A stretch of DNA of 32,000 bases from Candidatus Saccharimonadota bacterium (GCA_020632335.1 JACKFV010000001.1:390001-422000), one strand, 5' to 3'; counted from the stretch's first letter, positions 2,882 to 26,272 are shown. Numbers and translations: made by a program. The notes: a model not told the origin generated them from the sequence alone.

Positions 2882-3265
2882 CTAGCGCAAAACACCCGTG
2901 AGGGGAAGCACCGAAAGCAGCTCCAGGTTATTCGCCTCGCGGGTGAGAGAGGTACCCAGTGGCGTCTCCGCCTCGGCCAGGAGGACCGTCATATCTCTCC
3001 CGGTGGCGGGTGGCGGGGTGAGCGCAAGGATCTCCACAGGCTCTGGAGTGCTGGCCAGCAGTGGCGCAGCCGGCAGGGCGTACTGATAGGGCACAGAAGG
3101 CGCGGAGCCCAGGGCTCCTGTAATGGGCGTCTCGAACTGGCGAATGCCACCGTACTGCGCGCCCACCTCCATCAGCGAGAAGAGCGCCGGCCCCACGACC
3201 CCCACCGCGATGAGGACCAGACTCGTGAGCCAGGGGTTCTGCAGATGGTGGCGAGGAGCGTTCAT
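2882..3265 (-). CDS. Small N-terminally membrane-anchored Pro/Ala-rich protein ending in LPLTG-VLR; candidate sortase substrate
   Basis: 127-aa ORF ending in TAG. It is co-directional with the sortase-like gene and ends 9 nt before that gene's ATG. It has a single TM helix (LTSLVLIAVGVVGPALFSLM). The C-terminus reads ...LSVLPLTGVLR-stop, with the LPLTG codons at 2894-2908. I recognise no homolog; coding status rests on ORF length, operon position and the motif. Confidence 0.55.
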   Translation of the reverse strand: MNAPRHHLQNPWLTSLVLIAVGVVGPALFSLMEVGAQYGGIRQFETPITGALGSAPSVPYQYALPAAPLLASTPEPVEILALTPPPATGRDMTVLLAEAETPLGTSLTREANNLELLSVLPLTGVLR

Positions 3266-3327
3266 CGAGAATATATGTAAGAGTACTTTCAGGAAAATCT
3301 CATGATTGGCAAGTGAATTATTACTTT

Positions 3328-3356: not shown

Positions 3357-3411
3357 GCGTATGTAGAGTATCTGTATACACTCTCTGAAAAATACCTGGC
3401 GCCAGTGGCTC

Positions 3412-5328: not shown

Positions 5329-5340
5329 GCCTATGGCGGC

Positions 5341-5949: not shown

Positions 5950-6250
5950 ATATCTATTACCAATATTTTTGCTATGTAGTTGTGGTAAAATAGCTGGTAT
6001 TAGCGGTCTGGCTGTGCAGCGCTATAGCACGGTATCTCTCGCTCTGCTGGCACTCGGTAGACCATATATAGGGCGGTGCACAACGCTAGTTTCGGGGTTA
6101 TTTATAGCTGATAATCGGTTGTAAATACTTCTAAAAAGAGCATTAAACCACAATAGTGCAACTATGTAGCACTTGGGTGCACCGCAGCACCTACTTGTGC
6201 TTGCGCGCGGCTCTCTCCATCGTAGATGCTGTATCGTATACCCCAGATTC

Positions 6251-6380
6251 ATGCGTCATCTGCGTCGCGCGCTCTCGGCTCTTCTCACCACGAGTCTCCT
6301 CGCTAGCCAGTACAGTGTCTGGCTGCTGGCAGGATTCCTTGGGAATCAGCTCATCAGCCCCGGCCAGGCCGCGGCGTCCT
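6251..6380 (+). other. Predicted signal peptide / N-terminal signal anchor of the giant protein
   Basis: Basic n-region (MRHLRR), a long hydrophobic stretch, then PGQAAAS as a possible AxA-type cleavage site. Confidence 0.5.
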
Positions 6381-9300
6381 TCGTCATCAACGACAGCGTG
6401 GGGGTCTACACCTACACCGCGGGGAGCCAGTGGATGCCGGGGATCATCCCCCCCACGGGCAACCCCGGGAATATCAGCGACCCCAGCTATAACCTCACCC
6501 CTGCTGGTGGCACGGGCATTACCCTCTATGATACCGGGCTGGGTACGGCGCACGTCAGCACCATTGCGGTCTCTCCCCTGTCCTTCGACGCCTGGGAACG
6601 GCTGGTCATCCACACAGGGCTGGTGTCTCCGCAGCATAGCTATACCGTGGAGGTATTCGACTGTAGTAGCGGTAACCTCTTAAGTGGCACGGCTCCCAGC
6701 CTGGGCACTCTCACCCAGGGCAACACCAGCAGCGGGCAGATAGTCTATGACATGAGCGGTTATGATAACACCTACACCTGCCTGCAGGCTCAGGTGACGA
6801 TGCAGCAGGGGGGCGCGAGTTTCCCTCCGGTAATAGAGGGGATAGATATCGAATGGGATCCTCGGCCAGTGTGGCTGACGGACATCAGCTGTGCTGGTAG
6901 CCCTACAGAAGTAGGTAGCCAAGGAAGCTACACCGTACGCTACTCACTCAGCTATGCTGACGATAGTAATAGTGTGGTGTGGGTCCCCCTCCCCAGTGAT
7001 GGCAATGGTATCCTCTACCCCGGTGCCTACCCCACCCCCGGGAGCGCCACTAATGCCAGCTCTGCCTATGGGCAGACAGTCCCCCCCACAGCACCTACCA
7101 GCATCAGCCACGGCGGGCAGTACACCCCCACGGCTACCACCGTGCTGGGGCAGGCCATACCCGCCAATAGTATCTACTGGCAGCTGGGAGCTGTAAAAGC
7201 AGGAGAGACGGGCGTCATGAGCTTCAGCTGGCCACTGCCTAATGGGTTCCAGGACGGGATCACCGGAGCATTCCAGAGTAGTGTTACCTCGGCTAATACA
7301 GGTGTACTCAGCTCTAGCCCTGTGGTGTGCCCCTACACTGCCACCCCAGAACCCCGCATGAATAAAGAGGTTTCTGGTGGGTTTTATCAGTCCAATACAC
7401 AGACCCACTATCTCTTTGATAGCTTTGGCTATAGTACGGTAGCGACGTACCACCTGGACTACAGTAATTATCGGGAGCTGGCTCCACACCCCTACTGGGG
7501 GAGTAGGAATAGTACCAGCGATGGGAAGGGAGGGGAGGAGGTGTATAACGCTGTACTGGTAGACGATGTAAGTGAAATCATCGACGCTCTAGACGCCAGT
7601 TGTGGTGGGAGCAGTGGTGCCATTACTGCTATCAGCAGTGGGGGCGTACTCGACTCTCTGGCAAAGACCATTACGTGGTCTCTGGGGGATCTGGCCATCA
7701 ACGACTATGGAGAAGTCACCTATAGCGTGGACTATGGCGGCTGCCCTGAGGACACCACCGTCACGAACACTGCCACTCTCTATGGGGACAATATTACCCC
7801 ACTACAAGACAGCGAAATAGTCAGCATACAGACCCCACCACGAGGGAAAGGTGCCTTTGCCAAAGGAGATGAAGCAGACTGGTACAATACCATCAATGGC
7901 ACCACGCAGTACAGTGTGCCACAGATATGGTCACATGTAGATAATAATATCCCCGGTATTTACCTCAATAAATGGGATATACAACCCCATACGCACGAAG
8001 AGGCGATTACCTATTACCTCCGGGCAGCCACTACAGAGCAAGGAGGCAACAGAGCCATGAGCGATGTAGTGATGGTCGACAAAATACGAAAAAGTGGCAA
8101 CGCCCTAGATGACCCTAATGTGGGCGCGGCTTTCTCTGGAGTGACGTTTATCTCGGCCAAGCTAGACCCGAGTATCACTCAGTATGGTCGTATTTTTTAT
8201 TATACGGGGTCTGATACCACCCCGGCGATAGAGCCAGGAAGTGACGCTCCGCTCTATGACTATGCTGACTTTGCGGCTTATGCCGGCCCTGCAGATACCG
8301 ACATCGGTGGCGGATCGCTCGGGTGGAAACTCTATAGCCTCAGCACTACCCCCCCAGCCAGCGTAGACTGGGTGGCTTTTTATATCCCCTGTATATCCAG
8401 CAATGCCTTTCCCATCAGCACCGAACCCTGGGGACGCTGCGCCTATGGCGACTACAACCCCCTCCACCCCAATGCACTGGATAGTAACCCGAATAATGAC
8501 TACGTACCTGATAGGATCACGAACAGCATCACAGTGACTATCGACACCCCCGCAGACGCCTGTGAGAGCTACGTCATCCCTAATGAGGGGAACTTCAAGG
8601 CGCATCGTCTGCCCACTGACACCCCCGGTACTCCGGCACGAGAAGACCTCGAATGGCACTCTGGCAGGGGCGACAGTGATCTTTCTCTGAGTGAAGGATT
8701 TTCTTCTGTAGGGGATCTGGAATACACCCATGTGGTGCCTACCCTGGGAGGCTTTGGCTACAGTAGCATGGAGGTGGATGGGGAGAGTACCATCTATATG
8801 ACCGACACAGATACCTTCTCTACCAGCATCACCGTAGAGAATCTGGGGAGTGACACCGCCCTCAACACCACTGTAGAGGTACCCATACCAGTAGTAGCGG
8901 CTAATAATGGTTCCTTTGGGCTGACGCTCCTGGGGGTGTCTCTGGGAGGGTGGAGTGGCAGCGTGGACTACAGTGGGCTGCCCAATAGCATCAGCATAAA
9001 TCTGGGGACTCTGCCGGTGGGGATGCAAGCCGAGCTCTCACTCGACTGGCAGCTGCCTATGGGCATCCCGGATAACACTCTTGTGCCGCTGACAGCTACG
9101 GTGTCCTTTGCAGACAACAACAGCTGCCCCACCCCATCACAGCCGCTGGATACCGCTGTTGTGGTGCGCAACACCCCTGAACTCGTACTGAATAAGTACC
9201 GTGACGCGGCGCTTATCCCCAGTGGGGAGGCGGTGAATTATCAGATAACCGCGCTCAACCTGGGCCCTGCGGTGAGTAGTGACACCTTTGTCTTTGATGA

Positions 9301-12300
9301 AGTGCCAGAATATATGGTGCTTAAGAGTGCATACGTCCAGACGGTCGATGACAATGGCACGATGTATAACTGCAATTCTAATGGATCTATGGCCTGTAAG
9401 GTGTACTTCTTCCCTCGGGGGCAGAGCTGTGGCGCGGTGAATCCTAATGGGATTATTAGCTCGAGTAACCCCATCACCGCCAGTGATATCTATAGCTGCT
9501 TTGAGGAAGGGCAGGAGACCAGCCCGGGTAGTGGAGAGTGGATCCCCACGAGTTTCTCTGCAGAGGACACCCTTTACATTGCCTGGCTACTAGACGAGGC
9601 CTTTACACCACATTTCTTCCCGGTGAACAAGCTCGTAACGGTCGGATTCCAGGCCATCAACGATACCAACTACAGTAATGGACTTTCCGACCCTCTGGTA
9701 GATGGATCGCCTGCAGGGACGCTCCTGCAGAACTTCCCGGCAATTGTGAGTCAGGAACTCCTTCAGGCTATTGGGAATCAGGTCTTCACGACCATTATCC
9801 CGGAGCCACTGATGCAGATAACCAAGCAGTCCAGCACCAACTATATCAATGCTGGGGGGGACTTTGAGTGGACAGTAAACTATGTCAATGAATCACTGAC
9901 CGAGAGCACGATTTCAGTGCTGCAAGAGACCCTCCCTGCTGGGGTTATCCTCCAGGAGGTGTGGCATGAGTGGAACTTCCGCGCGGATCAAAACGGTGCG
10001 CCAGCCTCTGCGGGAGCCTATGGCGCCCCGGTGAAGCTCTGGGACAGTAGCACCAGCAACGGTGCGGTGACGGTAAATGCCCTGCCTGGCGGTACAACGG
10101 TACAGGTAGCCATTAATAATGACGGGAGCGAAGCGGCGTCCTTCCCCGGTGTGCCGCTGGATAGCAGTGGGAATACGCTGCGTGGGGGGCCTCTCGGGCT
10201 GCTGGAGGGTGGGACCTTCACCCTCAAAGTAAGCGCCCCAGCCGATGCCGAGACCTGGGACCTCCTGCATAATGAAGCGCAGATTGACTTCAAAACCTCT
10301 CATGGGGTGAATACAGTAGACGACAGCGATGACGTGTATGTGCAGAACCCCGAGCTGCTCATCAGCAAGACCGCCAGTGTAGAGGAGACCATCAGCGGGA
10401 ATGGATTCCAGTACGCCATGGTGGTGCGCAACCAGGGGCTCTGGCAGGCAGAGAATGTGGTGATAGCAGACACGCTCCCGGCGGAACTCAGCTATGTACC
10501 GGGGAGTTTGCAGGTCATTGGCACCACGTATAGTGTGATTAACGAGGCCTACACGGGTGGCTATGGGGGCACGCTTAGCTTCAGCCTGAGTAACGGCAGC
10601 GACCCTGATGGTGTACTCCCAGCGAACTCGGGGACGATCTATCTGCTCTATGCCGTGACGGTAGACCCCGGTACACCCCCCGGCACGGTGATGACCAACA
10701 GCGCCAGCATCGTGAATGATCTGCTGGAGAACCCTGACCCGAACCCCAGCTGTGACCCTGGCGACCCCAGACTCACCGGGCAGCTGGCCACCCCAGATGC
10801 CGGCAACCCGCTCTACTACTGTAATAACATCACTGAGGATAGCGTTCTTATCCCCTACTTTGACCCCTACATCACCAAGCGAGCGCCAGACCAGGTGCAG
10901 GGCGGGGACTACTTCGACTACACCCTCCGCTATGGGAATGGCACGCAGCAGCCCGGAGAAGAGGTCTTCATCGCTGATGCGCTGCCCAGCTATAACACCG
11001 TAACCGACAGCGATGGCAACCCCTCTAACGGGACAGTAACGCTGGAGAACGTGGTGGTGAGCAACGGCGAGACGATCTACTACACCTATGCGCCTACGCT
11101 GACCGACCTCAGCACACTGGACTACAGCACCGTCATCAGCTGGAGTACGACGCCTGCGCTCCCCTACACTACCCACATTGCGATTGTGCCCAGTGGCGGC
11201 ACCATGCCCGGGCTGGCGGGGCCGTATACCGTCACTGTGCGGGTACAGGCGAGTGACGCAGCCACCGGCATAGCACACGTCGCGGGGACGATTATGAATA
11301 ACGCCACCATGGTGCAGTCCAGCAGCACTGACCCTGAGTGCATCCCGGGTGACCCGGCCTATGACCCTGGATTCAGCGCATGCGGAGACGACACCGACGA
11401 CACCGTCACCAAGACTCCGGGCTTTGACCTCTCCATAGAGAAGTTCGCGGACAAGGAAGGGATCTTCCCCGGGTATACCCCTGGCGAGACCCTCCAGTAC
11501 ACCATACGGGTAGGGAATAGCGCCATCAGCGCGGAGCCTGCCTGTGGGGTGTATGTACAGGAGCTGAGCTACCCCGAGGAGCTGGACCCCAGCACCATCA
11601 CCCATGACTGGACCAGCCCTGGGTTCGTCGACCAGACCACCGGTGCGCCGATAAGCTACCTGACGCCTGCGGGCCTGGGGTATGACACCGTGCCCAGCAG
11701 CTGCGTGCAGATCACCACGGCAGACACCGACAGCGACACCGTGACCGACCAGTGGACGCTGGACACCACCGCAGCCCCCGGCTGCCCCAGCAGCTATGAG
11801 GCTCTCTGTATCCCTCCAGGGGCGGTGCAGACCTTTAGCATCAGCGGGAAGATAATGCTGGATATGCCGGATTACTTCGACAGTGGGGACCCCATAGAGA
11901 ACACCATACAGGTGTGTAATCATGACGGCACCGCGCCAGATGACTGCGCCCCGGGGGCCGAGGACATACCGAATAATAACCAGGCCAGCAGCCTGACGGT
12001 CGTCTACCGCAGTGACCCCATCAGTAGCAATAGCGGGTACAGCTGCGGCGAGGATGACATCTGTGGGAATGAGGACGATAGCGCGCAAACCGCCAACGCC
12101 GGCGACACCATCGCCTACACCGTGACCTATGACAACCTGGGGCATACGGGCGCAGAGAATAGTGTGCTGGAGGAGACCATCCCCGAGGGAACGTGCCTAG
12201 AGGTGGGGAGCATCGCTGGAGAGATCCCCGTCAGTGCGAGTATTACCTATAGTAATGACAACGGCAGCAGCTGGACCTACACCCCCGTGGCGGACGGCAA

Positions 12301-18300: not shown

Positions 18301-21300
18301 GGTGTGGTTTGACGCCAATAATAGCTGCGCCCTCGACCCCAGCGAGACTGCGGGCATACCGGGCGTGGTGCTCACCCTCAGCTGGGACCAGAGCGACACG
18401 CTGAGCAATACCGCTGTAGAGGGCACTACCGGCGCCACGCCACTGGCCTACAGCGCTGGGGTGACCGCTACTACCAATGCCGATGGCGTGTACGACTTTG
18501 CGAGTGTGCCCGTGGTATGGCCACTGGGTGACCTCAGCGGAGTGACAAACCCCACCTATACCGTGAGCGTGAGTACGCCGCCTACGGGCTTCACCAGTAG
18601 CTACGCCAGTGGATCTGGCAGCTGTGACAATGGGGATAACACCGGCCACAACCCCGGGGGCAGTTCTACCGGGGCCATAAACCCCACCGTGAGCGTGGTG
18701 AATACTCTAGACTTTGGCTATACCGTCCTGGGGGAGATCGGCACCACGGTGTTCCTCGACCTCGACAAAGACGCAGTGTATGAGACAGCGAGTACCGAAT
18801 CGGGCATCAGTGGCGTGGAGGTGTGCCTCTATACCGACAGAGACAATAGTGGGAGTATAGACACCAGCTATGGCAGCAGTGATGAAGTCAGCTGCCTGAC
18901 CACTGACAGCACCGGCCAGTACCTCTTCACCGGGCTGCCAGTAGATGGTGGTGATGGCGCTACGCCACTGGACTACATCGTCATAGTGCCTAATAGCACT
19001 CCCAATGCCGGGGCTGACGGCAGCCTGATTACCGATGATGGCGGTCTGCTGGATGGCTACTTCTCGACCCATCAGAGCCAGCTCTACCCAGCGAATGAAA
19101 GCCCCACCAGCGACACCCTGACCAACAACGACGAGGCCGTGAGCCGTGACCCGGCGGGCTACCAGGTGCAGCTGAGCGTGGACCTGAGCAATGCCGCCAC
19201 AGACCCCAATACGCACGAGTATACGGCGGACTTTGGCTACCATGAGGAGAGCTATGACGCGCAGCTCAGCGGGTATGTTTTCCTCGACCCAGACGCCGAC
19301 ACCTGCCGAGACACCGGCAGTCTGACTACCCCGGCCCCCAGCTGCAGCGGCACGGACCCCGATAACGACGTACCGATGAATGGCGTGGAGATGGTGCTCT
19401 GGGGTATAGATGCCTTCGGGAATTACTACGGGCCAGCGCCAACCCACCCCCTATACCTGACGGCCATTACCGAGCTGGGACTCGACCCCGTGGCCTATGC
19501 GAGTAACCCTCCGGCGGAGTACTTCGTTATAGACCCAGCGCTCACCGGGCCGCAGGCTCCGCAGGCGGGCTATACCACCAATAGCTCTTGGCCAGCGGGG
19601 TACTACAACTTTGGGAGTCTGAACCCCGCCGCGGGCATCCTCACCCTGCCCGATGGGGCATACACCGTAGCAGAGATGCAACCCGCGGGCTATGGCTCTA
19701 CTGGGTCTAATGCGGGGGATAACCTCAGCGTGACGCTGAATGGTGAGGGATCGTATGAGAATAATCCGCTGAACCCAGGCGACCCTTGCGGCGCTACAGC
19801 GCTGACGGCCTGTGACCCTGCCCGGCCCTACACCGTGAATATCATCCGCGATATCCTCCTGCCGCCCAGCAGCCACAGCGAGGAGAATAACTTTGGAGAG
19901 CTCCTGGCGCAGATAGGGAACCATGTCTTCTGGGATACCAACCAAGACGGCACCTACAACGAGGGCGACAGTGGCATACCGGGCGTGACCCTCACCATAG
20001 CCTGTACCGACACCACCAGCGGTGACGTGGTCGATGTCATCGACGCTAGCACCGGCAGCGTGCTGCCCGCCCCCGTACAGCAAGTGACTGATAGCAGCGG
20101 TGGGTATACCTTCACTGGCATCCCCCTGGACGCTGACTGTACGGTGACAGTAGACCAAAGCACCCTCCCGGACCCTAGCGCTACCCCCACAGTGGGCATA
20201 GCGGATACTGATGAGGAGTCTCAGCACGGCACTACACCGAACACCTATACCGTCAGCACCAGCAGCAGTGACCCCAGTAGCTGGGTGATCCCTTATGTGG
20301 ACTTTGGCTACTACACAGACCAGCTGGGGAGTATCGGTGATCTTGTCTTTATGGATACCGACCAAGACGGCGCCTACAACGGCACGGACTATGGCATCGG
20401 CGGGGTGACGATCACCCTCTATGACGACAGCAGCTGTAGTAACCCCATCGCCACCGCGGTGACGGACGGCACGGGCGCGTATAGCTTCAGTATGATTCCC
20501 TTCGGTGACTATAGCGTGAGTGTGGACCTGGGCAGCGGCGCGCTGGGGGGGCTCAGCAGTACGCATGGGGAGGCGAGCGGTGCGGGCGCTAGCCCCGCAG
20601 ACGACAGTAATAATAATGCTGCGCATGACCCTGGGTGCATCACTGCCAGCATCGACAGCAGTGACCCGACCGAGAACGACGCGGACTTTGGCTTCACGGT
20701 GCCGGGGGGGCCGGTGATCCTCGGGAGCTTTGGGGATCTGGTGTGGCAGGACCTCAACGGTGATGGCCTCTACGACGCAGGAGAGCCACCACTGCCAGGG
20801 GTAGACGTCTGCCTCTATAATGACGTCAATAGCAGCGGCAGCTATGAGCCCGGCACTGACACCCTGGTGGGCCTGGGCTGTGAAACCAGTGACCTCAACG
20901 GCCAGTACCTCTACAGCGGGCTGCCGGTGGGCGACTACTGCGTGGTGGTGGATACCACTACCGTGCCGAGCGGCTACACCCACACCAGTGGCGGTACACC
21001 GGGGGTAGACAATACCAGCCACCCCGAGCAGTACTGCTTTAGCATCGTGAATACTCCAGAAGGGCTAGACCCACGGTATGGTTACTTTGGCTATGAGCCG
21101 GGGAGCAATAGCTGCATCGCTACGCTGGGGGGCACGGTCTTCTATGACGCGCAGCCCAGTGGCGGCTATGACACCAGTGGTGACAGTACCCTGGGGGGCG
21201 TGACGCTAGAGATCTACGCGGGGAATAGCCTCGTGACTACCACCACCACAGACGCGCAGGGGGACTATCAGCTCACCCTGCCCTGTGGCCAGTATGCGGT

Positions 21301-24300
21301 AGTGGTGACCGATGACTACGGCGTGCTGCCCAGCGGCTGGACGAGCACCCACACTAGCGGCCTGAGCAGCCAGTACATGGGGCCAGATAACCTCAGCAAA
21401 GACCCTACGGGCTACAGCATGGTCATCACTACCAATGGGCAGGTGAACCTGACCGGGGACTTTGGCTACTACGGTGATGGCTCGAACCCCGTCTACGGCA
21501 GCATCGGCGACTACGTCTGGCTGGACCTCAACGGCGATTGCATACAAGACGCGGGCGAGGCAGGCATCGCGGGGGTGGAGGTAACGCTGGTCACCAGTAG
21601 CGGGGCCACCTACACCACGCTGACCGACAGCAGCGGCCTGTACCTCTTCAGCGGCCTACCAGCAGACACCTACACCGTGCTGATAGACGGCAGCAGTAGC
21701 CCGAACCAGAGCTCGCTCAGCGGGCTGCAGAGCACCTATGAGAGCAGCTGTACCCAGGCGCAGGACCCCTCTGGCAGCAGTACGAGCATCAATGGGAATA
21801 GCGTTCTGAGCGTTGACTTCCCCTACAACCAGACAGGCGGCCCGGTGGATAGCTGCAGCGCGGCCACCTACACGGGGGTCATCGGTGATACGGTCTTCTA
21901 CGACGCTGATGGCGACGGCCAGTACGACGAATCTGGCCCAGACTATGGCCTGGGAGGCGTGCCGGTGGTGCTCTATGCGAGTGATGGCGTGACGGTAGTG
22001 GTCACAACCACCACCACCGCCAGCGGAGCGTATAGCTTCCTCGTCACCAGCCCGGGGACCTACACCGTGGCTCTGGGGACGCTCCCGGCATTCTATAGCG
22101 GACTGGTGAGTACCCACACCACGGCCACCCATGGCGCGCCACACAGTGACGGCAACCCAGACCTAGCGCGCGACCCTGCGGGGTATAGCGTGACGCTGAG
22201 CGCCAGCCCCAGCTGTGACCAGACTGACCGCTCAGCGGACTTTGGCCTGGCGGCGGCGGTGGTACCACCAAACCCCTTCATCGGGGAGATCGGCAATGCG
22301 GTGTGGTATGACGACGACCGCGACGGCGTGTGGGATACCGGTGAAGCGCTCATCCCTAACGTGCTGATTATCGTCTATGATAGTAATGACGTGCCCGTGT
22401 GTGAGACCCTCACCACCAGTACCCCCAACGCCACGGGCGGCAACTGGCTCTGCACTGGGCTAGACGTGAATGAGACCTTCACCGTGGTGGTGGCTGATGA
22501 TACCACCCACCCCATGAGCCAGCACGTACTGGCGGGGATGACCCACAGCCTGGGCGTACAGAACCTGCCCGGCAGCAGCTATAGCACCGATAATAACAGC
22601 CAGAACGACAGCGGCTACATCGTGGATGTCCTCAGCCAGAGTACCCCTACCAACTACACCGCGGACTTTGGCTACTACGACGAGGACACCCCACCGGGCA
22701 CACCGCTGTGTAGCTTCGGGGATCAGTTCTTCCTGGATATGGACGACAATGATCTCTTCAGCACGGGGGAGGAGAGTTCTCTCTTCGACAACGTCACGGT
22801 GTCGCTCTATGCCGATGATAACGTGGACGGCATTGCCGACACGGGTACAGCGGTGTTGAGCATCACCCCAGACGCTACGGGCAGCTATAGCTTTGCTCCG
22901 GTGGTGTGTGGGCACTACGTGGTGGTGGTGATGGATATGAGCACCCTCCCCACGGGCCTGACCCCCACCAGCACCGGCGGCAACGGCACCGCGGCGGCGC
23001 CCAATGACGACAACAGCGACGGCATTAGTAAGGACCCCACCGCAGCGTATCCGGTATTCCTGGACCCTGCGGGAGACACCGCTCAGGTACACGGCGACTT
23101 TGGCTTTATCGTCGAGAATACCGCGTGTATGGGCAGCGTGGGCGACTATATCTTTGAGGAATCCGACACGGATGGTGACCAGAGCACCGCACTGGTAGGG
23201 CCGGTGGAAGGCGTGACGATCACCCTGACCGATAGCATCACCGGGCAGGTCTACACCACCACCAGCGACGCCAGCGGGGCGTATAGCTTCTCACCAGTGC
23301 CGTGTAGCGACTACACCGTCACGGTGGCCAATAGCACTGACCCGGTGCTGCTTGGCAATCAGCTGGTGCCCACCAATGGCACCACGCAGACTAGCAACGG
23401 GTATAGCGTCACCATCACCAATGGCGTGGTGGTAGATACGGCGGACTTCAGCTATCAGCAAGACCCGACCATACCCCCCACACCAACGCTCATCACCATC
23501 GGGGACTTCACCTGGGAGGATAGCAATGGCGACGGCATCCAAGACTCTGGCGAGCCTCCCCTCAGCGGCATAGATCTCTGCCTGCACGTGGACCTCAACG
23601 GTAATGGCAACCCCTATGACGACACGCCCATCAGCACCACCACCAGCAACAGTAGCGGGCTCTATAGCTTCACGAGCTTGCCCGCTGGGGTGGACTACCA
23701 TGTGGCGGTATGCGGCTACCCGCTGACGCACGTGCCCACCACCCCCACGCAGCTGCAGGGCCCCATAGATGACCCCGTGAGCGATAACAGCTATAACTTT
23801 GGCTTCCAGCCGCTGGTGCTGCCACCGCCACCCACTACACCTCTGGGGAGCATCGAGGCGACGGTATTCTATGACGAAAACGGCGACGGCACCCTGAATG
23901 GCGCTGACACGGGCATCGCGGGAGTGACGGTATGGCTGGTGCGTGACCTGAATGGTGACGGCACCTATGACCCGGCTAGCGAGACCGTGGCCACCACACT
24001 GACCAATAGTAGCGGCATCTATGCCTTTACGCAGCTGCCGGTGGTGGACAGCACGGGCAACCCCGTGACCTACCAGGTGGTCGTAGACGCCAGTAATCCG
24101 CTCTCACCGCTCAGCAATATGCTGCCGACGGTCACTGTGGCGGACACCCCCGGCCCAGACGAGAACGAGACCACCACGCATACTGAGCTCGTGACGCTGA
24201 GCCCCAGCGCGCCGGATAACACCGAGGTGGACTTCGGGTATGTGCTCGACCCTCTGGCGCCTGTGGTGGGGACCATCGGCTACCACGTGTGGTGCGAGTG

Positions 24301-26272
24301 CGCGCACAACGCCGATGGGATCTATGGTAATAGCAGCGACGAAATGCCGGTGCCAGGCGTGGGGATCTCGCTCTACACGGACCTCAACGGCGATGGCATC
24401 ATCGACACCACCGTGGGCGGCCCTGACGAGTTCATCAGCCAGATAATGACAGATAGCTCCGGGCAGTATGCCTTCACGGGCCTGCCGGTACAGGACGGCG
24501 CTGGGCAGCCGATAGAGTACCGCGTGGTCGTGACGCAAGACAACGGCTACAGCACCATACTGGGAGCCGACGCGCAGGTGCAGACGGGCTACAGCGTGAC
24601 GCTCAGCCCCGTGCAAAATGTGCATCTGCTGGCTAACTTTGCGCAGGTGCTGGGCTCTATAGGCGACACCGTGTGGCATGACGCGAATACAAACGGCGTG
24701 CAAGACAGCGGCGAGGCGGGCATACCAGGGGTAGTCGTGACGCTCTACGACGAGGCGGGAGTGGTCATCGGCACCCGGGTGACCGACGCAGACGGGCACT
24801 ACTACTTCTGTGGGCTGCCGCACGGCACCTACACCGTGACCACCAGCACCCCCGCGCAGTACCCCAACGCCAGCACCCCCACCAGCTGGACGGTAACCCT
24901 CACCCCCAGCAGCTATGTGAGTGATACTGAGGATTTTGGCTTCTACAAAGACACCCCCACCACCACGAGCACCACCACCGGCGGCAGCGTGCCAGACGGC
25001 CCTCCGATAGACTACAGCACGACAACCGGCACCACTACAGGTACCACGACGGGCACTAGCACCACGGGGACCACCGACGGCACTAGCACCGGCGTGACGC
25101 TGCCACCGAACATAGACCCCGAACTGCCGCTCATCGTCTTCCCTCCACGGCCCAAGCCCACTATGCCAGACCGCCAGTACGTGCGGGAGAATGACCTCAT
25201 CCGCAAGCTGGAGGAGCTGCCACAGACGGGGTTCAGCACACTGGGGCCGGTGCCAGAGCAAATCATCAGAGCCTTTGACGCGGGGTCTATCTTCTCGGAT
25301 ACTGACGTGAACGACGACGGCTACGTCGAGATGATCAACCTGCATCTGCAGAATATCCTCCCCATTGACCGCAGCATGCGCTTTGCGCCGAAGGAACCCA
25401 TCAGTGGTATAGACGCCGCGGTGATGATGATCGGTAGTCAGGAGGCCGTGGAGGACTACGAGATCCTCGACGATTACTTCTACCAGCAGGCGGCACTGAC
25501 CGAGCACTGGTATGATGAGATCCTCTGGTATGTGGCGGAGTACGATATTGACCTCGGGTTTAAGTGGACGCTGCCCGGAGCAGGCTACTTCCTCACCATG
25601 GACGACGCCACCAGCATCACGGCGCAGGCATTCCATATCCTCCCGTCAGACATGCTGCAGGCGTGGGACAGCCCCGTGGATATGTACCGCGAGGGGCTCA
25701 TCGAGCGCAATATCATCAACGGTGAGATGGAGCAGTGGCCACGAGAGGGCACGCTCAGCCGGGTGGAATTCGCTATGCTGCTCAGCCGAGTACTCATGTA
25801 CCATGATCTGAAAGACGTGGGCATGGCCAAACTCCCCAAGGACGTGCAACTGCACAGCAGCATCAAGGGGCTGGAGAAAGATGTGCCCGTGCACTTTGCC
25901 CTGCCGAATGAGCACAGTGGCTGGGTGGAGGCCCTGCACTATGGTCTGGCGATGTACGAGCGCCCCAGCGATAGCATCGACCCAGGGCAGTTGTACCTGT
26001 GGGGGCATAGCTCTGAGGTGCCCAACTACCCCATGAGCAAGCAGCCCTACGGGCATATCCTCAACGCGCTCTGGAGTGGCGCCAACATAGGCGAAACCCT
26101 AACCCTCACCACTGACGGGCAGGCAGAGACCTACATCATCCGTGATATACAGCGTATGGTGCCCAAGGCCGCGGTAGAGACCTGGCAGGACTACTCCGAG
26201 CACGATATGGTGCTGATGACCTGTGAGAAAGACATCGACTACCGGATGAACGTCTGGCTGGATAAACTCTAG
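6251..26272 (+). CDS. Giant (about 6,673 aa) secreted multidomain surface/adhesin-like protein with C-terminal LPQTG + SLH/sortase-like module
   Basis: Uninterrupted 20.1-kb ORF; the track starts it at TTG 6173. ATG 6251 gives a signal-peptide-like N-terminus (MRHLRRALSALLTTSLLASQYSVWLLAGFLG) and is preferred. Recognisable DUF11-like, SdrD-B-like, propeller-like, SLH-like and sortase-like modules occur throughout. Stop is TAG at 26270-26272. Confidence 0.9.
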   Translation: MRHLRRALSALLTTSLLASQYSVWLLAGFLGNQLISPGQAAASFVINDSVGVYTYTAGSQWMPGIIPPTGNPGNISDPSYNLTPAGGTGITLYDTGLGTAHVSTIAVSPLSFDAWERLVIHTGLVSPQHSYTVEVFDCSSGNLLSGTAPSLGTLTQGNTSSGQIVYDMSGYDNTYTCLQAQVTMQQGGASFPPVIEGIDIEWDPRPVWLTDISCAGSPTEVGSQGSYTVRYSLSYADDSNSVVWVPLPSDGNGILYPGAYPTPGSATNASSAYGQTVPPTAPTSISHGGQYTPTATTVLGQAIPANSIYWQLGAVKAGETGVMSFSWPLPNGFQDGITGAFQSSVTSANTGVLSSSPVVCPYTATPEPRMNKEVSGGFYQSNTQTHYLFDSFGYSTVATYHLDYSNYRELAPHPYWGSRNSTSDGKGGEEVYNAVLVDDVSEIIDALDASCGGSSGAITAISSGGVLDSLAKTITWSLGDLAINDYGEVTYSVDYGGCPEDTTVTNTATLYGDNITPLQDSEIVSIQTPPRGKGAFAKGDEADWYNTINGTTQYSVPQIWSHVDNNIPGIYLNKWDIQPHTHEEAITYYLRAATTEQGGNRAMSDVVMVDKIRKSGNALDDPNVGAAFSGVTFISAKLDPSITQYGRIFYYTGSDTTPAIEPGSDAPLYDYADFAAYAGPADTDIGGGSLGWKLYSLSTTPPASVDWVAFYIPCISSNAFPISTEPWGRCAYGDYNPLHPNALDSNPNNDYVPDRITNSITVTIDTPADACESYVIPNEGNFKAHRLPTDTPGTPAREDLEWHSGRGDSDLSLSEGFSSVGDLEYTHVVPTLGGFGYSSMEVDGESTIYMTDTDTFSTSITVENLGSDTALNTTVEVPIPVVAANNGSFGLTLLGVSLGGWSGSVDYSGLPNSISINLGTLPVGMQAELSLDWQLPMGIPDNTLVPLTATVSFADNNSCPTPSQPLDTAVVVRNTPELVLNKYRDAALIPSGEAVNYQITALNLGPAVSSDTFVFDEVPEYMVLKSAYVQTVDDNGTMYNCNSNGSMACKVYFFPRGQSCGAVNPNGIISSSNPITASDIYSCFEEGQETSPGSGEWIPTSFSAEDTLYIAWLLDEAFTPHFFPVNKLVTVGFQAINDTNYSNGLSDPLVDGSPAGTLLQNFPAIVSQELLQAIGNQVFTTIIPEPLMQITKQSSTNYINAGGDFEWTVNYVNESLTESTISVLQETLPAGVILQEVWHEWNFRADQNGAPASAGAYGAPVKLWDSSTSNGAVTVNALPGGTTVQVAINNDGSEAASFPGVPLDSSGNTLRGGPLGLLEGGTFTLKVSAPADAETWDLLHNEAQIDFKTSHGVNTVDDSDDVYVQNPELLISKTASVEETISGNGFQYAMVVRNQGLWQAENVVIADTLPAELSYVPGSLQVIGTTYSVINEAYTGGYGGTLSFSLSNGSDPDGVLPANSGTIYLLYAVTVDPGTPPGTVMTNSASIVNDLLENPDPNPSCDPGDPRLTGQLATPDAGNPLYYCNNITEDSVLIPYFDPYITKRAPDQVQGGDYFDYTLRYGNGTQQPGEEVFIADALPSYNTVTDSDGNPSNGTVTLENVVVSNGETIYYTYAPTLTDLSTLDYSTVISWSTTPALPYTTHIAIVPSGGTMPGLAGPYTVTVRVQASDAATGIAHVAGTIMNNATMVQSSSTDPECIPGDPAYDPGFSACGDDTDDTVTKTPGFDLSIEKFADKEGIFPGYTPGETLQYTIRVGNSAISAEPACGVYVQELSYPEELDPSTITHDWTSPGFVDQTTGAPISYLTPAGLGYDTVPSSCVQITTADTDSDTVTDQWTLDTTAAPGCPSSYEALCIPPGAVQTFSISGKIMLDMPDYFDSGDPIENTIQVCNHDGTAPDDCAPGAEDIPNNNQASSLTVVYRSDPISSNSGYSCGEDDICGNEDDSAQTANAGDTIAYTVTYDNLGHTGAENSVLEETIPEGTCLEVGSIAGEIPVSASITYSNDNGSSWTYTPVADGNGQDCAVTHFRIDFGTLPAPAGFAADPSSDPLVGYQGDASALIEEALCFGGIAAIPNNLQVIGTGESTIAGGTRGTSALEGSDGNLYVAWANNGEDNEIWMWDGSTWAIIGSGESALPGSTYASSMLEGSDGNLYVAWANNGQDNEIWMWDGSTWAIIGSGESNITGSSYASSMLEGSDGNLYVAWANNGQDNEIWMWDGSAWTIIAYYGSVSSTGTVAMAPAAGGSFFIAWANRGNQDNVVWEYDPSPGYAVTTLQKTLLPVVTGTLTSWGDYTFDYSTPDDSSLVVRVQNINASGVCGGTTLAGPVTLSGADTSYTIDMSGIAATNTALCIRATFTPSSDGVSSPLLDCGSFSYDVLEPDNPSVLYTTQANNTQCIGTPSYTPNTWEVIGFGESSLGGNTGSTALLQGSDENFYVAWANNNNQANEVWMWDGSAWTIIGSGESSVAGFTKDTALLEGADGNLYVAWANGQALPNEVWMWDGAAWTIIGSGESGFNGYTETTSLLEGTDGNLYVAWGNTSAAGAPNEVWMWDGAAWTIIGSGESSIAGSTSDSSMIEGADGNLYVAWANNGQDNEVWMWDGSAWTIIGSGESSIAGSTYGSSMIEGSDGNLYVAWANNGQDNEVWMWDGSAWTIIGSGESSVTGGTHTSSMLEGTDGNLYVAWGSYSGQTTNEVWMWDGSAWTIIGSGESTATGNTGSSGMIEGSDGSLYVSWANYGGQANQVWRYTTPVADAYGLETTYQTLLSASPDASAWDTLYLNTVLDDELLGTATVAVYDASCTTQLLGITDASIGLVDISTIPVATHPSICIAVTLALPALTQQPIGSTNPAQLCGLYATYTAPSPTFGFRVGVQTAGLTVDTINNTVCISTDTPELDENNNCGEDEIVLLNSELSLTKTVDQSVAHTGDTLTYTLEVCNNGQHQAQDVEITDTLPVLLTGVVFSPDITSTSPDYASLNAGACETITVTGTIDAGATSGDILTNQACVVGTQYDPDETNNCDTAHTFIGDAPNLEIEKTDNVDFDEINNELTYIITYRNSGNADAQDVTITDTLSGYVSYQSFAVLSGPITSCSHDGSPLGGDVTCDAGGSPLATLSAQESGEIEIVVRIEPGSPEPMQPFLDQIMQENDPLIDNNVCISIDPDEVNITDNCDQDETEIASSYASLSGYVFLDGLDETPTDAVYDPLSPGDDTPLENVVVYLLGEDVFGRYYGPAPTDPVYAQLLADGVFLNLLGVADPANTPGVAYLTQVNYNDAAQTLPHGTTNSDGLYGFVGLTPGTYHTVEIQPVHYASTGSNAGHTVDTSSGSAVLTEVGSGSHNDGGNSPNAGDMGSTLSVNYISGIVLSSGDDSVHNDYGEVGGSIGDTVFFELEGTADGLYNGTDILAPNVRIRLSYDLDGDGTADHFQSQVTDLNGAYSFDALPLYDDTGAPLTYTLWVDNSSIPTSWDSTDDEAGGAGNTADNTSDNQAHDPLSTTVTFSDPTLQPNRHVTDADFGYTGPTGSIGNTVFYDADSNELYEPDSNGDGYVQAGEDAPIPYVQVTLYLDNGFPGLYEPAFDTIYQVTYTDADGQYLFENLPLGQDYIVRVTDGTVNDGSPGYGVSYLSNHVSTYAATYGNSANASTVPSSLQDHEGRNPNGYFVHLEDDTVLDHPQLIHHEYADFGYVMPTPGEIGNQVWYEAGTNTSYDSGTDDGAEGIELTLYYDANCDGAYDPLDSDGDGWPDSGDQYWGTTMTDANGQYLFPYLPYSDGQHTDPLSGEESICYLVAVTDTLNNTALTTTGSTADNENKDENGYSVTLSDGAVGNTPGVSSNIDYTADFGYEAPVWGIVGNTVFYDINGDGIYNSATEVAIDGVDIVLQINTDTTGTSPTWQDASTYYPLLDDRVTTGVTASNDDWSGAAWTQGQYFFAELPLILIDGVTPAQYRAVVDGATLPAGFSTADSTHGVTTSESTTQNPSPGANTDDYARDPAGYIFALDDTNPGVSNVDLTGDFGIIRYTNIGDLVWFDANNSCALDPSETAGIPGVVLTLSWDQSDTLSNTAVEGTTGATPLAYSAGVTATTNADGVYDFASVPVVWPLGDLSGVTNPTYTVSVSTPPTGFTSSYASGSGSCDNGDNTGHNPGGSSTGAINPTVSVVNTLDFGYTVLGEIGTTVFLDLDKDAVYETASTESGISGVEVCLYTDRDNSGSIDTSYGSSDEVSCLTTDSTGQYLFTGLPVDGGDGATPLDYIVIVPNSTPNAGADGSLITDDGGLLDGYFSTHQSQLYPANESPTSDTLTNNDEAVSRDPAGYQVQLSVDLSNAATDPNTHEYTADFGYHEESYDAQLSGYVFLDPDADTCRDTGSLTTPAPSCSGTDPDNDVPMNGVEMVLWGIDAFGNYYGPAPTHPLYLTAITELGLDPVAYASNPPAEYFVIDPALTGPQAPQAGYTTNSSWPAGYYNFGSLNPAAGILTLPDGAYTVAEMQPAGYGSTGSNAGDNLSVTLNGEGSYENNPLNPGDPCGATALTACDPARPYTVNIIRDILLPPSSHSEENNFGELLAQIGNHVFWDTNQDGTYNEGDSGIPGVTLTIACTDTTSGDVVDVIDASTGSVLPAPVQQVTDSSGGYTFTGIPLDADCTVTVDQSTLPDPSATPTVGIADTDEESQHGTTPNTYTVSTSSSDPSSWVIPYVDFGYYTDQLGSIGDLVFMDTDQDGAYNGTDYGIGGVTITLYDDSSCSNPIATAVTDGTGAYSFSMIPFGDYSVSVDLGSGALGGLSSTHGEASGAGASPADDSNNNAAHDPGCITASIDSSDPTENDADFGFTVPGGPVILGSFGDLVWQDLNGDGLYDAGEPPLPGVDVCLYNDVNSSGSYEPGTDTLVGLGCETSDLNGQYLYSGLPVGDYCVVVDTTTVPSGYTHTSGGTPGVDNTSHPEQYCFSIVNTPEGLDPRYGYFGYEPGSNSCIATLGGTVFYDAQPSGGYDTSGDSTLGGVTLEIYAGNSLVTTTTTDAQGDYQLTLPCGQYAVVVTDDYGVLPSGWTSTHTSGLSSQYMGPDNLSKDPTGYSMVITTNGQVNLTGDFGYYGDGSNPVYGSIGDYVWLDLNGDCIQDAGEAGIAGVEVTLVTSSGATYTTLTDSSGLYLFSGLPADTYTVLIDGSSSPNQSSLSGLQSTYESSCTQAQDPSGSSTSINGNSVLSVDFPYNQTGGPVDSCSAATYTGVIGDTVFYDADGDGQYDESGPDYGLGGVPVVLYASDGVTVVVTTTTTASGAYSFLVTSPGTYTVALGTLPAFYSGLVSTHTTATHGAPHSDGNPDLARDPAGYSVTLSASPSCDQTDRSADFGLAAAVVPPNPFIGEIGNAVWYDDDRDGVWDTGEALIPNVLIIVYDSNDVPVCETLTTSTPNATGGNWLCTGLDVNETFTVVVADDTTHPMSQHVLAGMTHSLGVQNLPGSSYSTDNNSQNDSGYIVDVLSQSTPTNYTADFGYYDEDTPPGTPLCSFGDQFFLDMDDNDLFSTGEESSLFDNVTVSLYADDNVDGIADTGTAVLSITPDATGSYSFAPVVCGHYVVVVMDMSTLPTGLTPTSTGGNGTAAAPNDDNSDGISKDPTAAYPVFLDPAGDTAQVHGDFGFIVENTACMGSVGDYIFEESDTDGDQSTALVGPVEGVTITLTDSITGQVYTTTSDASGAYSFSPVPCSDYTVTVANSTDPVLLGNQLVPTNGTTQTSNGYSVTITNGVVVDTADFSYQQDPTIPPTPTLITIGDFTWEDSNGDGIQDSGEPPLSGIDLCLHVDLNGNGNPYDDTPISTTTSNSSGLYSFTSLPAGVDYHVAVCGYPLTHVPTTPTQLQGPIDDPVSDNSYNFGFQPLVLPPPPTTPLGSIEATVFYDENGDGTLNGADTGIAGVTVWLVRDLNGDGTYDPASETVATTLTNSSGIYAFTQLPVVDSTGNPVTYQVVVDASNPLSPLSNMLPTVTVADTPGPDENETTTHTELVTLSPSAPDNTEVDFGYVLDPLAPVVGTIGYHVWCECAHNADGIYGNSSDEMPVPGVGISLYTDLNGDGIIDTTVGGPDEFISQIMTDSSGQYAFTGLPVQDGAGQPIEYRVVVTQDNGYSTILGADAQVQTGYSVTLSPVQNVHLLANFAQVLGSIGDTVWHDANTNGVQDSGEAGIPGVVVTLYDEAGVVIGTRVTDADGHYYFCGLPHGTYTVTTSTPAQYPNASTPTSWTVTLTPSSYVSDTEDFGFYKDTPTTTSTTTGGSVPDGPPIDYSTTTGTTTGTTTGTSTTGTTDGTSTGVTLPPNIDPELPLIVFPPRPKPTMPDRQYVRENDLIRKLEELPQTGFSTLGPVPEQIIRAFDAGSIFSDTDVNDDGYVEMINLHLQNILPIDRSMRFAPKEPISGIDAAVMMIGSQEAVEDYEILDDYFYQQAALTEHWYDEILWYVAEYDIDLGFKWTLPGAGYFLTMDDATSITAQAFHILPSDMLQAWDSPVDMYREGLIERNIINGEMEQWPREGTLSRVEFAMLLSRVLMYHDLKDVGMAKLPKDVQLHSSIKGLEKDVPVHFALPNEHSGWVEALHYGLAMYERPSDSIDPGQLYLWGHSSEVPNYPMSKQPYGHILNALWSGANIGETLTLTTDGQAETYIIRDIQRMVPKAAVETWQDYSEHDMVLMTCEKDIDYRMNVWLDKL
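6571..6855 (+). repeat. Unnamed ~95-aa domain, copy 1 of 3
   Basis: SPLSFDAWERLVIHTG...YTVEVFDCSSGNLLSG...IVYDMSGYDNTYTCLQAQVT...PPVIEGIDIEW. It aligns with the copies at 13094 and 14540 through a shared W-x-x-L ... V-x-V-x-D/N-x-S ... L-x-G ... (I/V)D(M/I)S ... (L/I)C(I/L) ... pattern. Confidence 0.5.
9177..12210 (+). repeat. Region with at least six DUF11-like (conserved repeat domain) modules
   Basis: Module starts include LVLNKYRDAALIPSGEAVNYQITALNLGP, LMQITKQSSTNYINAGGDFEWTVNYVN, LLISKTASVEETISGNGFQYAMVVRNQGLWQAENVVIADTLPAELSYVPGS, PYITKRAPDQVQGGDYFDYTLRYGNG, LSIEKFADKEG...TLQYTIRVGN and ANAGDTIAYTVTYDNLGHTGAENSVLEETIPEG. All fit the DUF11 pattern (x-K-x ... GD-x-hydrophobic-x-Y-x-hydrophobic-x-hydrophobic-x-N-x-G ... 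hydrophobic-x-D-x-L-P). Confidence 0.6.
12482..13036 (+). repeat. Propeller-like tandem repeat block 1: four 48-aa blades (144-nt DNA period)
   Basis: IG(T/S)GES...(S/T)..(A/M)LEGSDGNLYVAWANNG(E/Q)DNEIWMWDGS(T/A)W(A/T)I repeated three times, with ctcgag landmarks at 12533, 12677 and 12821 (exactly 144 nt apart). A fourth copy is degenerate (...GGSFFIAWANRGNQDNVVWEYD). The first three copies are near-identical at the DNA level. Confidence 0.85.
13094..13369 (+). repeat. Unnamed ~95-aa domain, copy 2 of 3 (directly after propeller block 1)
   Basis: GTLTSWGDYTFDYSTPDDSSLVVRVQNINASGVCGGTTLAGPVTLSGADTSYTIDMSGIAATNTALCIRATFTPSSDGVSSPLLDCGSFSY. Confidence 0.5.
13469..14479 (+). repeat. Propeller-like tandem repeat block 2: seven 44-51-aa blades
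   Basis: Seven consecutive units of IGxGES-x12-(L/I)(E/Q)G(S/A/T)D(G/E)(N/S)(L/F)YV(A/S)W(A/G)N...N(E/Q)VW(M/R)(W/Y)DG(S/A)AWTI. Units 4 and 5 (about 13920-14210) are almost identical in DNA. Seven blades is the count of a closed beta-propeller. Confidence 0.85.
14540..14818 (+). repeat. Unnamed ~95-aa domain, copy 3 of 3 (directly after propeller block 2)
   Basis: SPDASAWDTLYLNTVLDDELLGTATVAVYDASCTTQLLGITDASIGLVDISTIPVATHPSICIAVTLALP...PAQLCGLYATYT. Confidence 0.5.
14968..15640 (+). repeat. Two further DUF11-like modules
   Basis: SELSLTKTVDQSVAHTGDTLTYTLEVCNNGQHQAQDVEITDTLPVLL and PNLEIEKTDNVDFDEINNELTYIITYRNSGNADAQDVTITDTLSGYVSYQS. Both are close matches to the DUF11 consensus. Confidence 0.7.
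15782..24943 (+). repeat. Array of about 21 SdrD-B-like (Cna-B/prealbumin-type, Ca-binding) modules
   Basis: Each unit begins G-(S/E)-I-G-(D/N)-x-V-(F/W)-x-D and carries a DxNxDGxxD loop, then (I/L)xGVxVxLY, then TxTDxxGxYxFxxLP.GxYxV, and ends in (A/T)DFG(Y/F). I counted 21 such starts by eye (15782, 16370, 16800, 17305, 17770, 18290, 18730, 19260, 19910, 20330, 20725, 21120, 21500, 21875, 22285, 22710, 23135, 23495, 23845, 24275, 24655; approximate). Units 1 and 8 belong to a longer subtype (SGYVFLD ... FG(R/N)YYGPAPT ... QP.(H/G)Y(A/G)STGSNAG). Confidence 0.75.
24947..25165 (+). repeat. Low-complexity Thr/Gly-rich then Pro-rich linker (wall-spanning-type region)
   Basis: KDTPTTTSTTTGGSVPDGPPIDYSTTTGTTTGTTTGTSTTGTTDGTSTGVTLPPNIDPELPLIVFPPRPKPTMP. 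Confidence 0.8.
25217..25231 (+). other. LPQTG (LPXTG-type sortase recognition motif), residues about 6323-6327 of the giant protein
   Basis: Codons ctg cca cag acg ggg are in frame. By my reading this is the only LPxTG in the protein. It sits between the Thr/Pro linker and the C-terminal sortase-like module and is not followed by a hydrophobic helix or basic tail. Confidence 0.5.
25232..26269 (+). other. C-terminal 346-aa module of the giant protein: three degenerate SLH-like segments + sortase-like domain, paralogous to CDS 1817..2872
   Basis: Colinear matches to the 351-aa protein: (G/Y)SIFSDT, TEHWYDEILWYVAEY vs PTQWYFPYAETLLRM, GTLSRVEFAMLLSRVL vs TPVTRAEVFTLLSRTL, LYLWGHSSE vs FIVFGHSST, GETLTLTTDGQAETYII vs GDTLTLTVDGQPRHYVI, VLMTCEKDIDYR vs LLFTCNTDLSER. 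His is at 26006-26008, Cys at 26222-26224 and Arg at 26243-26245. Confidence 0.7.

Follow-up and report, generated by a model that had tools for sequence, protein, structure and literature searches.

The subject of this analysis is a single 20-kb gene and, above all, the C-terminus of the protein that it encodes. The gene occupies positions 6251..26272 (+) of a 32,000-nt window of genomic DNA (the window, throughout, is the whole stretch that was analyzed, JACKFV010000001.1:390001-422000 of assembly GCA_020632335.1); its 6,673-aa product is referred to here as the giant protein. The giant protein is best explained as a secreted, fiber-like surface protein of a Peribacteria bacterium, composed of an orphan tip, propellers and a DUF11/SdrD_B stalk. 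(The Peribacteria form a class within Candidatus Peregrinibacteriota, which is a lineage of the candidate phyla radiation, or CPR.) Its C-terminus is read here, with somewhat better than even confidence, as a self-contained anchoring cassette: a motif of the form …NDL-x6-LPQTG, six residues, and then a sortase with a wall-binding, S-layer homology (SLH)-like part, all in the same chain. It is this cassette, rather than the size of the protein, that is the main point of interest.

A classical LPXTG sorting signal consists of the motif, a hydrophobic segment of ~20 aa and a short, positively charged tail. The LPQTG of the giant protein (aa 6323-6327, nt 25217-25231) is followed by 346 aa; within the last 450 aa the Kyte-Doolittle mean over 19 aa peaks at 0.72, and the giant protein has no match to the Pfam Gram_pos_anchor family. 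Because the tail lacks a hydrophobic anchor and is a folded module of 346 aa, this LPQTG is not a classical sorting signal. The tail aligns over its full length with a standalone protein encoded elsewhere in the window (P0001; 1817..2872, minus strand), with 26% identity over 349 aa (E 4e-12), and the alignment begins directly after the signal peptide of P0001. This secreted paralogue of 351 aa comprises a signal peptide, three SLH repeats (Pfam SLH, E 5.6e-15) and a sortase domain, and is 100% identical to an NCBI entry named 'sortase [Candidatus Peribacteria bacterium]'. An earlier note, made from the DNA of the window, had singled out LPQTG and an SLH/sortase-like module as an unusual C-terminus. 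Both are present; what the earlier note had not recognized is the enzyme nature of the module, its paralogy with P0001, the non-classical character of the motif and the conservation of the two as a cassette.

The tail divides into a degenerate triple SLH-like region (25250..25840, +), delimited by the full-length alignment to the SLH region of P0001, and a sortase-fold domain (25841..26269, +), which is identified by Foldseek, by alignment of a catalytic triad and by a Pfam Sortase score of 23.8 bits (cutoff 26.6). A first AlphaFold2 (AF2) model of the tail, built on a 5-sequence alignment, has a predicted local distance difference test score (pLDDT) of 69, and its 50 best matches in the PDB are all sortases. 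A second model, built on a 20-sequence alignment, reaches pLDDT 82 and a predicted template modeling (TM) score, pTM, of 0.84, and contains the eight-stranded β-barrel of sortases. Its top 50 Foldseek matches in the PDB are without exception class A or C sortases at probability 1.00, with about 150 aligned columns and a TM(target) of 0.5-0.63; some of the alignments to SrtC-1 extend over ~255 columns. Comparison of sequences alone leads to the same families: the profile of the module family matches solved sortases (4d70, E 2e-6; S. aureus SrtA, E about 1.6e-4) and, in three stretches, the SLH triplet of B. anthracis Sap (E 3e-24). Searches with the tail as a single query were less productive; against PDB sequences they yielded noise only, and a word-indexed homologue search returned nothing, not even the query itself. 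The His, the Cys (in TxC) and the Arg are invariant in 20 family sequences. In the giant protein they are GH6586SS (His at nt 26006-26008), T-C6658 (26222-26224) and R6665 (26243-26245), which align to H120, C184 and R197 of the S. aureus SrtA sequence, whose catalytic positions read H, C and R. The module has no hydrophobic segment, and so no membrane anchor; its standalone copies begin with a cleavable-looking signal peptide, from which they pass to the SLH repeats.

The combination of motif and module is not peculiar to the giant protein. An exhaustive HMMER search for the module in 1.84 billion representative proteins shows that 21 other distinct proteins (365-2,971 aa) have it at their very C-terminus, so that 22 fused members are known with the giant. 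A Φ-P-x-[TS]-G motif stands 1-8 residues before the module in 20 of the 22, the giant included, for example as LPQTG, LPKTG, LPLTG, IPFTG, IPRTG, IPQTG, IPATG, IPSTG, IPLTG, IPNTG, IPRSG, YPLTG, VPQTG, FPKTG, WPRTG or WPKTG. The junction motif is thereby strongly enriched (20 of 21, versus 4 of 129 among the other fetched proteins with a length of 440 aa or more; Fisher p 6e-20, for a set that is partly redundant). It is absent from all six intact standalone copies (6/6). Conservation extends to an additional element, [ND][DN][LF], located 9-11 residues before the junction motif, and the extended motif [ND][DN][LF]-x6-7-Φ-P-x-T-G is found in 20 of the 22 fused members. The cargo that precedes the cassette is unrelated from one member to the next (SdrD_B + LamG + DUF2341, DUF11 + GEVED, FG-GAP, Cys-rich repeats). 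One member, P0150 (514 aa), has the sole degenerate motif (FPQLG) and the sole Cys-to-Ser replacement, with AHAS in place of GHSS; its substrate site seems to have degenerated along with its active site.

Fused members are recorded from Candidatus Peregrinibacteria, Gracilibacteria and Peribacteria in NCBI, JGI, ENA and Logan data, under product names that ignore the cassette ('S-layer homology', 'DUF11', 'DUF2341 domain-containing protein'). A second fused protein, P0171 (MCB9809775.1; 2,587 aa), is rich in DUF11 and ends in IPQTG and the module; the genome of the giant protein probably encodes at least two fused proteins, P0171 among them, together with one split pair of the kind described below. 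A scan of a genome collection (species representatives, the genome of the window not among them) with four close sequences located two loci in one Gracilibacteria metagenome-assembled genome, which carries one standalone and one fused copy. In the HMMER search, the module is also found in a standalone, secreted form. One subtype of it has the catalytic motif FTC[DN], as do the copies in the window. A second, large subtype of SLH + sortase proteins has YTCWPPDS…RY and a signal peptide; it occurs as standalone proteins only and is never preceded by the motif (e.g., P0123, P0141, P0146, P0147, P0153 and P0154).

Motif and module are also found apart, in adjacent genes. Nine nt upstream of the P0001 gene, and in the same direction, an open reading frame (ORF) specifies a 127-aa membrane-anchored protein (2882..3265, minus strand; also called as a gene on Logan contigs) that starts with a transmembrane helix at its N-terminus and ends in …ANNLELLSVLPLTGVLR, directly before its stop codon; the extreme C-terminus, …NNLELLSVLPLTGVLR, closes with LPLTGVLR. 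Over its entire length, this protein aligns to the first 147 residues of P0002, a fused protein that continues via LPLTG into the module. The 127-aa protein is P0002's counterpart in split-gene form, the probable trans substrate of P0001 and possibly, once processed, a membrane-to-wall tether. Standalone P0122, whose module gene has its own signal peptide, is preceded on two marine contigs by a gene that likewise terminates in the motif (…SEIMIDELPTTGK, with IDELPTTGK at its very end). Apart from these two, no real gene among the 815 frames (60 aa or longer) in all of the fetched DNA ends with the motif. One to three residues follow the Gly in these split forms. Tails of that length cannot hold a protein in the membrane, and this sortase subfamily must therefore recognize its substrate differently, plausibly via the upstream [ND][DN][LF] element. 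Motif and module, then, are tightly associated in fused and split forms alike.

Two more general notions about the split genes were rejected. That every standalone module has a motif-bearing gene upstream is true for two of the four examined. That the split pair arises through recoding of TGA as Gly does not hold either: the stop codon of the 127-aa ORF is TAG, and all eleven genes of the window use the standard code and are free of in-frame TGA. At the locus of the standalone copy P0129, the gene upstream (L010 2-1606, +) specifies a thrombospondin-type-3-repeat protein that ends in an SLH triplet of its own and has no sortase motif, and a Flp/Fap pilin-like gene lies downstream.

The mechanism that we favor would proceed as follows. 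The giant protein would be exported by the Sec pathway, and its C-terminal module would fold and lodge in the cell wall by means of its SLH-like part. Cys6658, or the Cys of the standalone paralogue, would then attack the Thr6326-Gly6327 bond, which is the predicted sortase cleavage site, converting the ~6,300-residue fiber to a thioacyl intermediate. Resolution of this intermediate by an amine acceptor of the envelope, most likely peptidoglycan, would leave the fiber covalently anchored and release the SLH-sortase module with the newly exposed N-terminus GFSTLGPVPEQ… (GFSTLGPVPEQIIR). Whereas the architecture, the fold, the conserved triad and the association of motif with module are observed, we infer from established sortase chemistry that the bond is cut, which Cys cuts it (cis or trans) and what the acceptor is. 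It is the SLH part of the module that suggests a reaction in the wall with peptidoglycan as the likely acceptor. In general, SLH domains bind a pyruvylated wall polymer. Docking of the motif segment in cis on the module is suggested by the high pLDDT of that segment (80-85, falling below 50 in the linker after the Gly) and by the short, constant spacing between Gly and module. That such chemistry is feasible within one chain is indicated by engineered sortase-LPXTG fusions, which self-cleave (PMC2901362). Extended to the CPR Peregrinibacteria group, the proposal, to which we would assign an even chance, is that these bacteria have a mode of surface display that has not been described before: a secreted sortase with no membrane anchor, placed in the wall by its SLH repeats and usually forming the C-terminus of its own substrate, would by a single self-transpeptidation covalently anchor cargo of any kind, be it a membrane stub of 100 aa or a fiber of 6,300 aa, and would then be released; the signal would be [ND][DN]L-x6-Φ-P-x-T-G with no hydrophobic tail.

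Several observations weigh against this proposal. One fused protein, P0138, has no junction motif, and two of the four standalone copies examined (P0121 and P0129) have no motif-bearing neighbor. The giant protein's own sortase domain scores 20.6-23.8 bits, under the Pfam cutoff of 26.6; P0001 scores 25.6 bits, and the fused proteins P0135, P0131 and P0140 pass the cutoff with 50.8, 46.0 and 31.3 bits, respectively. The SLH repeats of the giant protein are degenerate: they have no Pfam SLH match and retain the conserved, TRAE-type Arg in repeat 3 only (LSRVE). Finally, the 3' 13.8 kb of the gene are supported by one assembly alone, independent support ending at 12513.

If the intermediate were resolved by water, the cassette would be a release device: the SLH-like module would hold the protein noncovalently, the sortase would cut LPQT/G, and the fiber would be shed, constitutively or on signal. 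This we consider unlikely, albeit the best placed of the alternatives. A module that includes a domain of wall-binding type is compatible with it, sortases hydrolyze their substrates slowly when no nucleophile is at hand, and the GAIN/MAIN or SEA domains with which some surface proteins cleave themselves would offer a parallel; autoproteolytic release modules have been described on large SLH- and sortase-anchored proteins (bioRxiv 10.64898/2026.05.12.724683). However, hydrolysis in the split forms would trim 1-3 residues, which is pointless, whereas transfer to an acceptor makes sense there. Moreover, the SLH repeats of the giant protein are the most degenerate in the family and, as the only attachment of a 6,300-aa fiber, would serve poorly.

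A slightly lower probability attaches to the notion that the module is a wall-resident sortase that serves other proteins only, with LPQTG as a tethered pseudo-substrate or lid; the giant protein would then stay whole and be held by its SLH part. Class C sortases do have an N-terminal lid in the active site, the long Foldseek alignments to SrtC-1 (~255 columns) are in keeping with one, and the motif segment appears to be docked in the AF2 model. Against this, a genuine Φ-P-x-T-G beside an intact Cys/His/Arg triad would be cleaved and not just bound; in the split forms, the motif is placed at the extreme C-terminus of a separate protein, where it can be a substrate only; and in P0150 motif and Cys are lost together.

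Improbable in our estimation, and a little more so than the lid, is ligation of protein to protein, in which the fiber would be joined to another protein via a Lys or N-terminal amine (the partner being an S-layer or stalk subunit, the membrane stub or a released module with its Gly) to generate a pilus-like or cross-linked lattice with no part for peptidoglycan. Among the solved structures closest in fold are class C sortases that assemble pili, released modules would be expected to expose an N-terminal Gly, the classic sortase nucleophile, and the genome probably has at least two fused proteins and a split pair. Nevertheless, neither a pilin-type motif nor a conserved acceptor Lys has been identified, rejoining a released Gly would merely reverse the reaction, and the cargo is too diverse for a dedicated polymer. 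Anchoring of the fiber by its own cassette, with an envelope amine as the acceptor, remains the reading that we prefer to each of these.

All of this presupposes that the gene is real and correctly assembled. The frame opens with ATG at 6251, the first ATG in a maximal open frame of 6173..26272 (+), and closes with TAG at 26272. The same ATG was chosen by an independent gene call on Logan contig L002 (gene end 6263 = window 6251). The earlier note's proposal of one 20-kb gene for a protein of ~6,673 aa is accordingly borne out: there is a single uninterrupted coding sequence of 20,019 nt with no stop inside it. The locus is shared by the source samples SRR12358675 and SRR12358676. Independent short-read assemblies from two separate runs reproduce window 1-12513 (100% match) and window 1-7526 (99.99% match); the longer of the two ends at 12513, where the blade repeats of the propellers start. 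Blades are the only DNA-level repeats of the gene (144-nt period, 78-91% identity, at 12533-12897 and 13562-14445; as tandem repeats, block A is 91% and block B 74-84% identical), and the SdrD_B modules are too diverged in DNA to register as tandem repeats. Since only the blades are similar in DNA, the assembly risk is confined to their copy number, and the number of blades (4 + ~8; 12518-14482) is the least certain feature of the giant gene. We regard it as very improbable that the 20-kb gene is an artifact, whether through chimeric assembly of the whole frame or of its C-terminal fusion, or as a pseudogene made from an adhesin and a downstream sortase gene. In favor of an artifact, the 144-nt repeats are near-identical, the short-read assemblies break at 12513 and the giant protein has no match in a collection of 5.8 billion proteins, whereas its neighbor P0001 is present there. 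Against it, the gene runs 20,019 nt in frame without a stop, the first 12.5 kb of the window are identical in two independent assemblies, its SdrD_B region is too diverged for misassembly, and the junction of cargo, motif and module recurs with the same spacing in 20 other proteins from NCBI, JGI, ENA and Logan.

Scans for promoters and terminators around the ends of the giant gene gave nothing meaningful, and no σ70-like promoter was found upstream by the promoter scan. A 7-bp hairpin with a weak T tail (6174-6193, +) lies ~60 nt before the ATG, in an AT-richer intergenic region of ~300 nt; it could be a 5' leader structure.

The domain order of the giant protein (residues counted from the ATG at 6251) was established with Pfam on overlapping segments and with hidden Markov models (HMMs) trained on the protein's own repeats. 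A probable Sec signal peptide (MRHLRR, a hydrophobic core and …GQAAA; 6251..6376, recognized by inspection and hydropathy, its cleavage site approximate) leads into an orphan region of no Pfam or NCBIfam family (aa 43-979; 6377..9187), which is presumed to be the distal tip of the fiber. A search of the 5.8 billion proteins with this orphan N-terminus (936 aa) produced one weak match covering 11% of it; local phmmer comparison of the giant protein's unassigned segments with all fetched proteins produced nothing, and a family in NCBIfam is likewise lacking for the N-terminus and the tail of the giant protein, for the paralogue and for the small ORFs. DUF11-type array A follows (aa 980-2064; 9188..12442), with five clear modules (aa 980-1092, 1190-1322, 1371-1499, 1541-1674 and 1940-2064) supported by Pfam DUF11, DUF7619 and DUF7507 and by the self-trained HMM; the stretch of aa 1675-1940, which has no assignment, could hold further DUF11 modules.

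Next come two propellers. Blade block A (aa 2090-2273; 12518..13033) consists of four ~48-aa propeller-type repeats with similarity to Reg_prop, matches to the self-trained HMM and the 144-nt tandem repeat, and is followed by copy 1 of an unnamed post-propeller domain (aa 2262-2400; 13034..13384). Blade block B (aa 2379-2753; 13385..14482) consists of 7-8 such repeats by Pfam, self-trained HMM and tandem repeats (eight matches to the HMM, of which the first and last are partial), and is followed by copy 2 of the unnamed domain (aa 2745-2890; 14483..14920). The self-trained HMM finds exactly these two copies in the giant protein, and copy 1 has no Pfam family. DUF11-type array B (aa 2911-3133; 14981..15649) contributes two modules (Pfam DUF11, E 7e-27, and the self-trained HMM).

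An SdrD_B/Cna-B-type array (aa 3178-6234; 15782..24952; Pfam SdrD_B, E 1.6e-181, with 17 or more stretches, and the self-trained HMM) has 20 modules and one divergent copy, which fills the gap at aa 4321-4553 and brings the total to ~21. A flexible linker rich in Thr, Gly and Pro, recognized from its sequence (aa 6235-6311; 24953..25183), then connects the stalk with the conserved junction of the fused family, RENDLIRKLEE-LPQTG (aa 6312-6327; 25184..25231). All of these features are on the plus strand. Arrays of SdrD_B and DUF11 domains typically form stalks, and DxDxDG-type Ca-loop motifs (11 strict, 20 loose) are present in the SdrD_B array.

Most of the modular order proposed in the earlier note survives this analysis: the signal peptide, the two propeller blocks each with its unnamed domain, the two DUF11 modules after them, the roughly 21 SdrD_B-like modules, the linker, LPQTG and the SLH/sortase module stand as that note had them, and its Ca-stiffened stalk is supported by the arrays and the Ca-loop motifs. 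Two of its counts need amendment. At least six DUF11 modules had been placed before the propellers, and the position is right but five are clear; four and then seven blades had been counted, and the four are right while the second block gives eight matches, two of them partial. The signal peptide, the tandem stalk domains and a surface anchor, albeit a non-classical one, are those of fibrillar adhesins. No known adhesive or ligand-binding domain was found in the giant protein, and its propellers are weakly Reg_prop-like; it is by pure inference that the N-terminus and propellers would form the binding end.

The P0001 gene lies 3.4 kb upstream of the giant gene, in a neighborhood of mostly housekeeping genes (dnaA, dprA, a TIM-like gene, ssb and rmuC) that also includes a DUF4012 gene and a GT2 glycosyltransferase gene. 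dnaA (282-1745, minus strand) is 70 nt from the standalone sortase gene, so that the locus may be close to a replication origin; the GC skew has no clear switch across the window. The GT2 gene (3412-5328, +) has an N-terminal part of ~400 aa with a weak GH17 match (E 0.0025, below cutoff), NEV…EVGWPS motifs and the architecture of an NdvB-like glucan synthase; a 202-aa multi-transmembrane ORF (5341-5949, +) follows it. A polysaccharide of the wall or envelope, with a bearing on SLH binding, could be the product of the GT2 locus.

The textbook sortase anchoring of Gram-positive bacteria relies on two devices of membrane retention, one being the membrane anchor of the enzyme and the other the hydrophobic, charged tail of the substrate. 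The giant locus and roughly 20 relatives dispense with both, which suggests covalent surface display that is organized from inside the wall, with the enzyme delivered as part of the substrate. This provides a handle on how uncultivated CPR bacteria attach giant surface fibers, to which a role in host-cell contact is ascribed. Protein engineering, too, could profit from a sortase cassette that is natural, compact and self-ligating and that has an extended motif. Under current product names, the cassette is invisible in databases.

The likeness to classical sortase sorting (S. aureus SrtA and protein A; classes A-F, MEROPS C60, PF04203) is extensive: the Φ-P-x-T-G motif, the β-barrel and the positions of His, Cys and Arg are the same, and the classical substrates are likewise large, repeat-rich surface proteins with SdrD_B/Cna-B stalks. 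In contrast to the classical enzymes, the one described here has no membrane anchor, is secreted or resides within its own substrate, and carries SLH repeats. The signal differs correspondingly, in that its Gly is followed by a 346-aa enzyme or by 1-3 residues instead of a hydrophobic segment and charged tail, and in that it has the additional [ND][DN][LF] element 9-11 residues upstream. In the fused form, enzyme and substrate are present at 1:1, which implies a single turnover. The nearest man-made counterparts are self-cleaving sortase tags, which (Mao 2004, as cited in PMC2901362) are likewise one polypeptide with cleavage at Thr-Gly within the fusion. Those tags have the order enzyme-motif-cargo, with hydrolytic or triglycine-dependent release, whereas the natural cassette has the order cargo-motif-enzyme, with a wall-binding domain in between.

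A functional analogy, and no more than that, may be drawn with Hedgehog/Hint autoprocessing, in which a C-terminal domain cuts its own N-terminal boundary via a (thio)ester, transfers the cargo and is released; fold and catalytic residues are unrelated, the acceptor is cholesterol, and Pfam detects no Hint domain in the giant protein. SLH-anchored proteins such as B. anthracis Sap and P. alvei SpaA share the three tandem SLH repeats, but here the triplet is joined to an enzyme, and in the giant protein two of its three conserved Arg motifs have been lost. No natural sortase-substrate fusion and no CPR SLH-sortase was found in the literature searched (an open-access corpus), an absence that is no proof of novelty. 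Sortases as such are common in the CPR (Méheust et al. 2019, PMC6744442), and for Peribacteria S-layer genes, 'a sortase A' and extracellular proteins of large size have been reported (Anantharaman et al. 2016, PMC4736985); neither paper describes a sortase fused to its substrate or an SLH-sortase. With fibrillar adhesins (Monzon et al.) and with the giant CPR proteins (PMC4736985), the giant protein shares its signal peptide, tandem stalk, huge size and CPR origin; it differs in having no recognized adhesive tip domain and in having the novel cassette as its proposed anchor. The giant CPR surface fiber is thus of a known type, and the Φ-P-x-T-G + SLH + sortase cassette is the new part.

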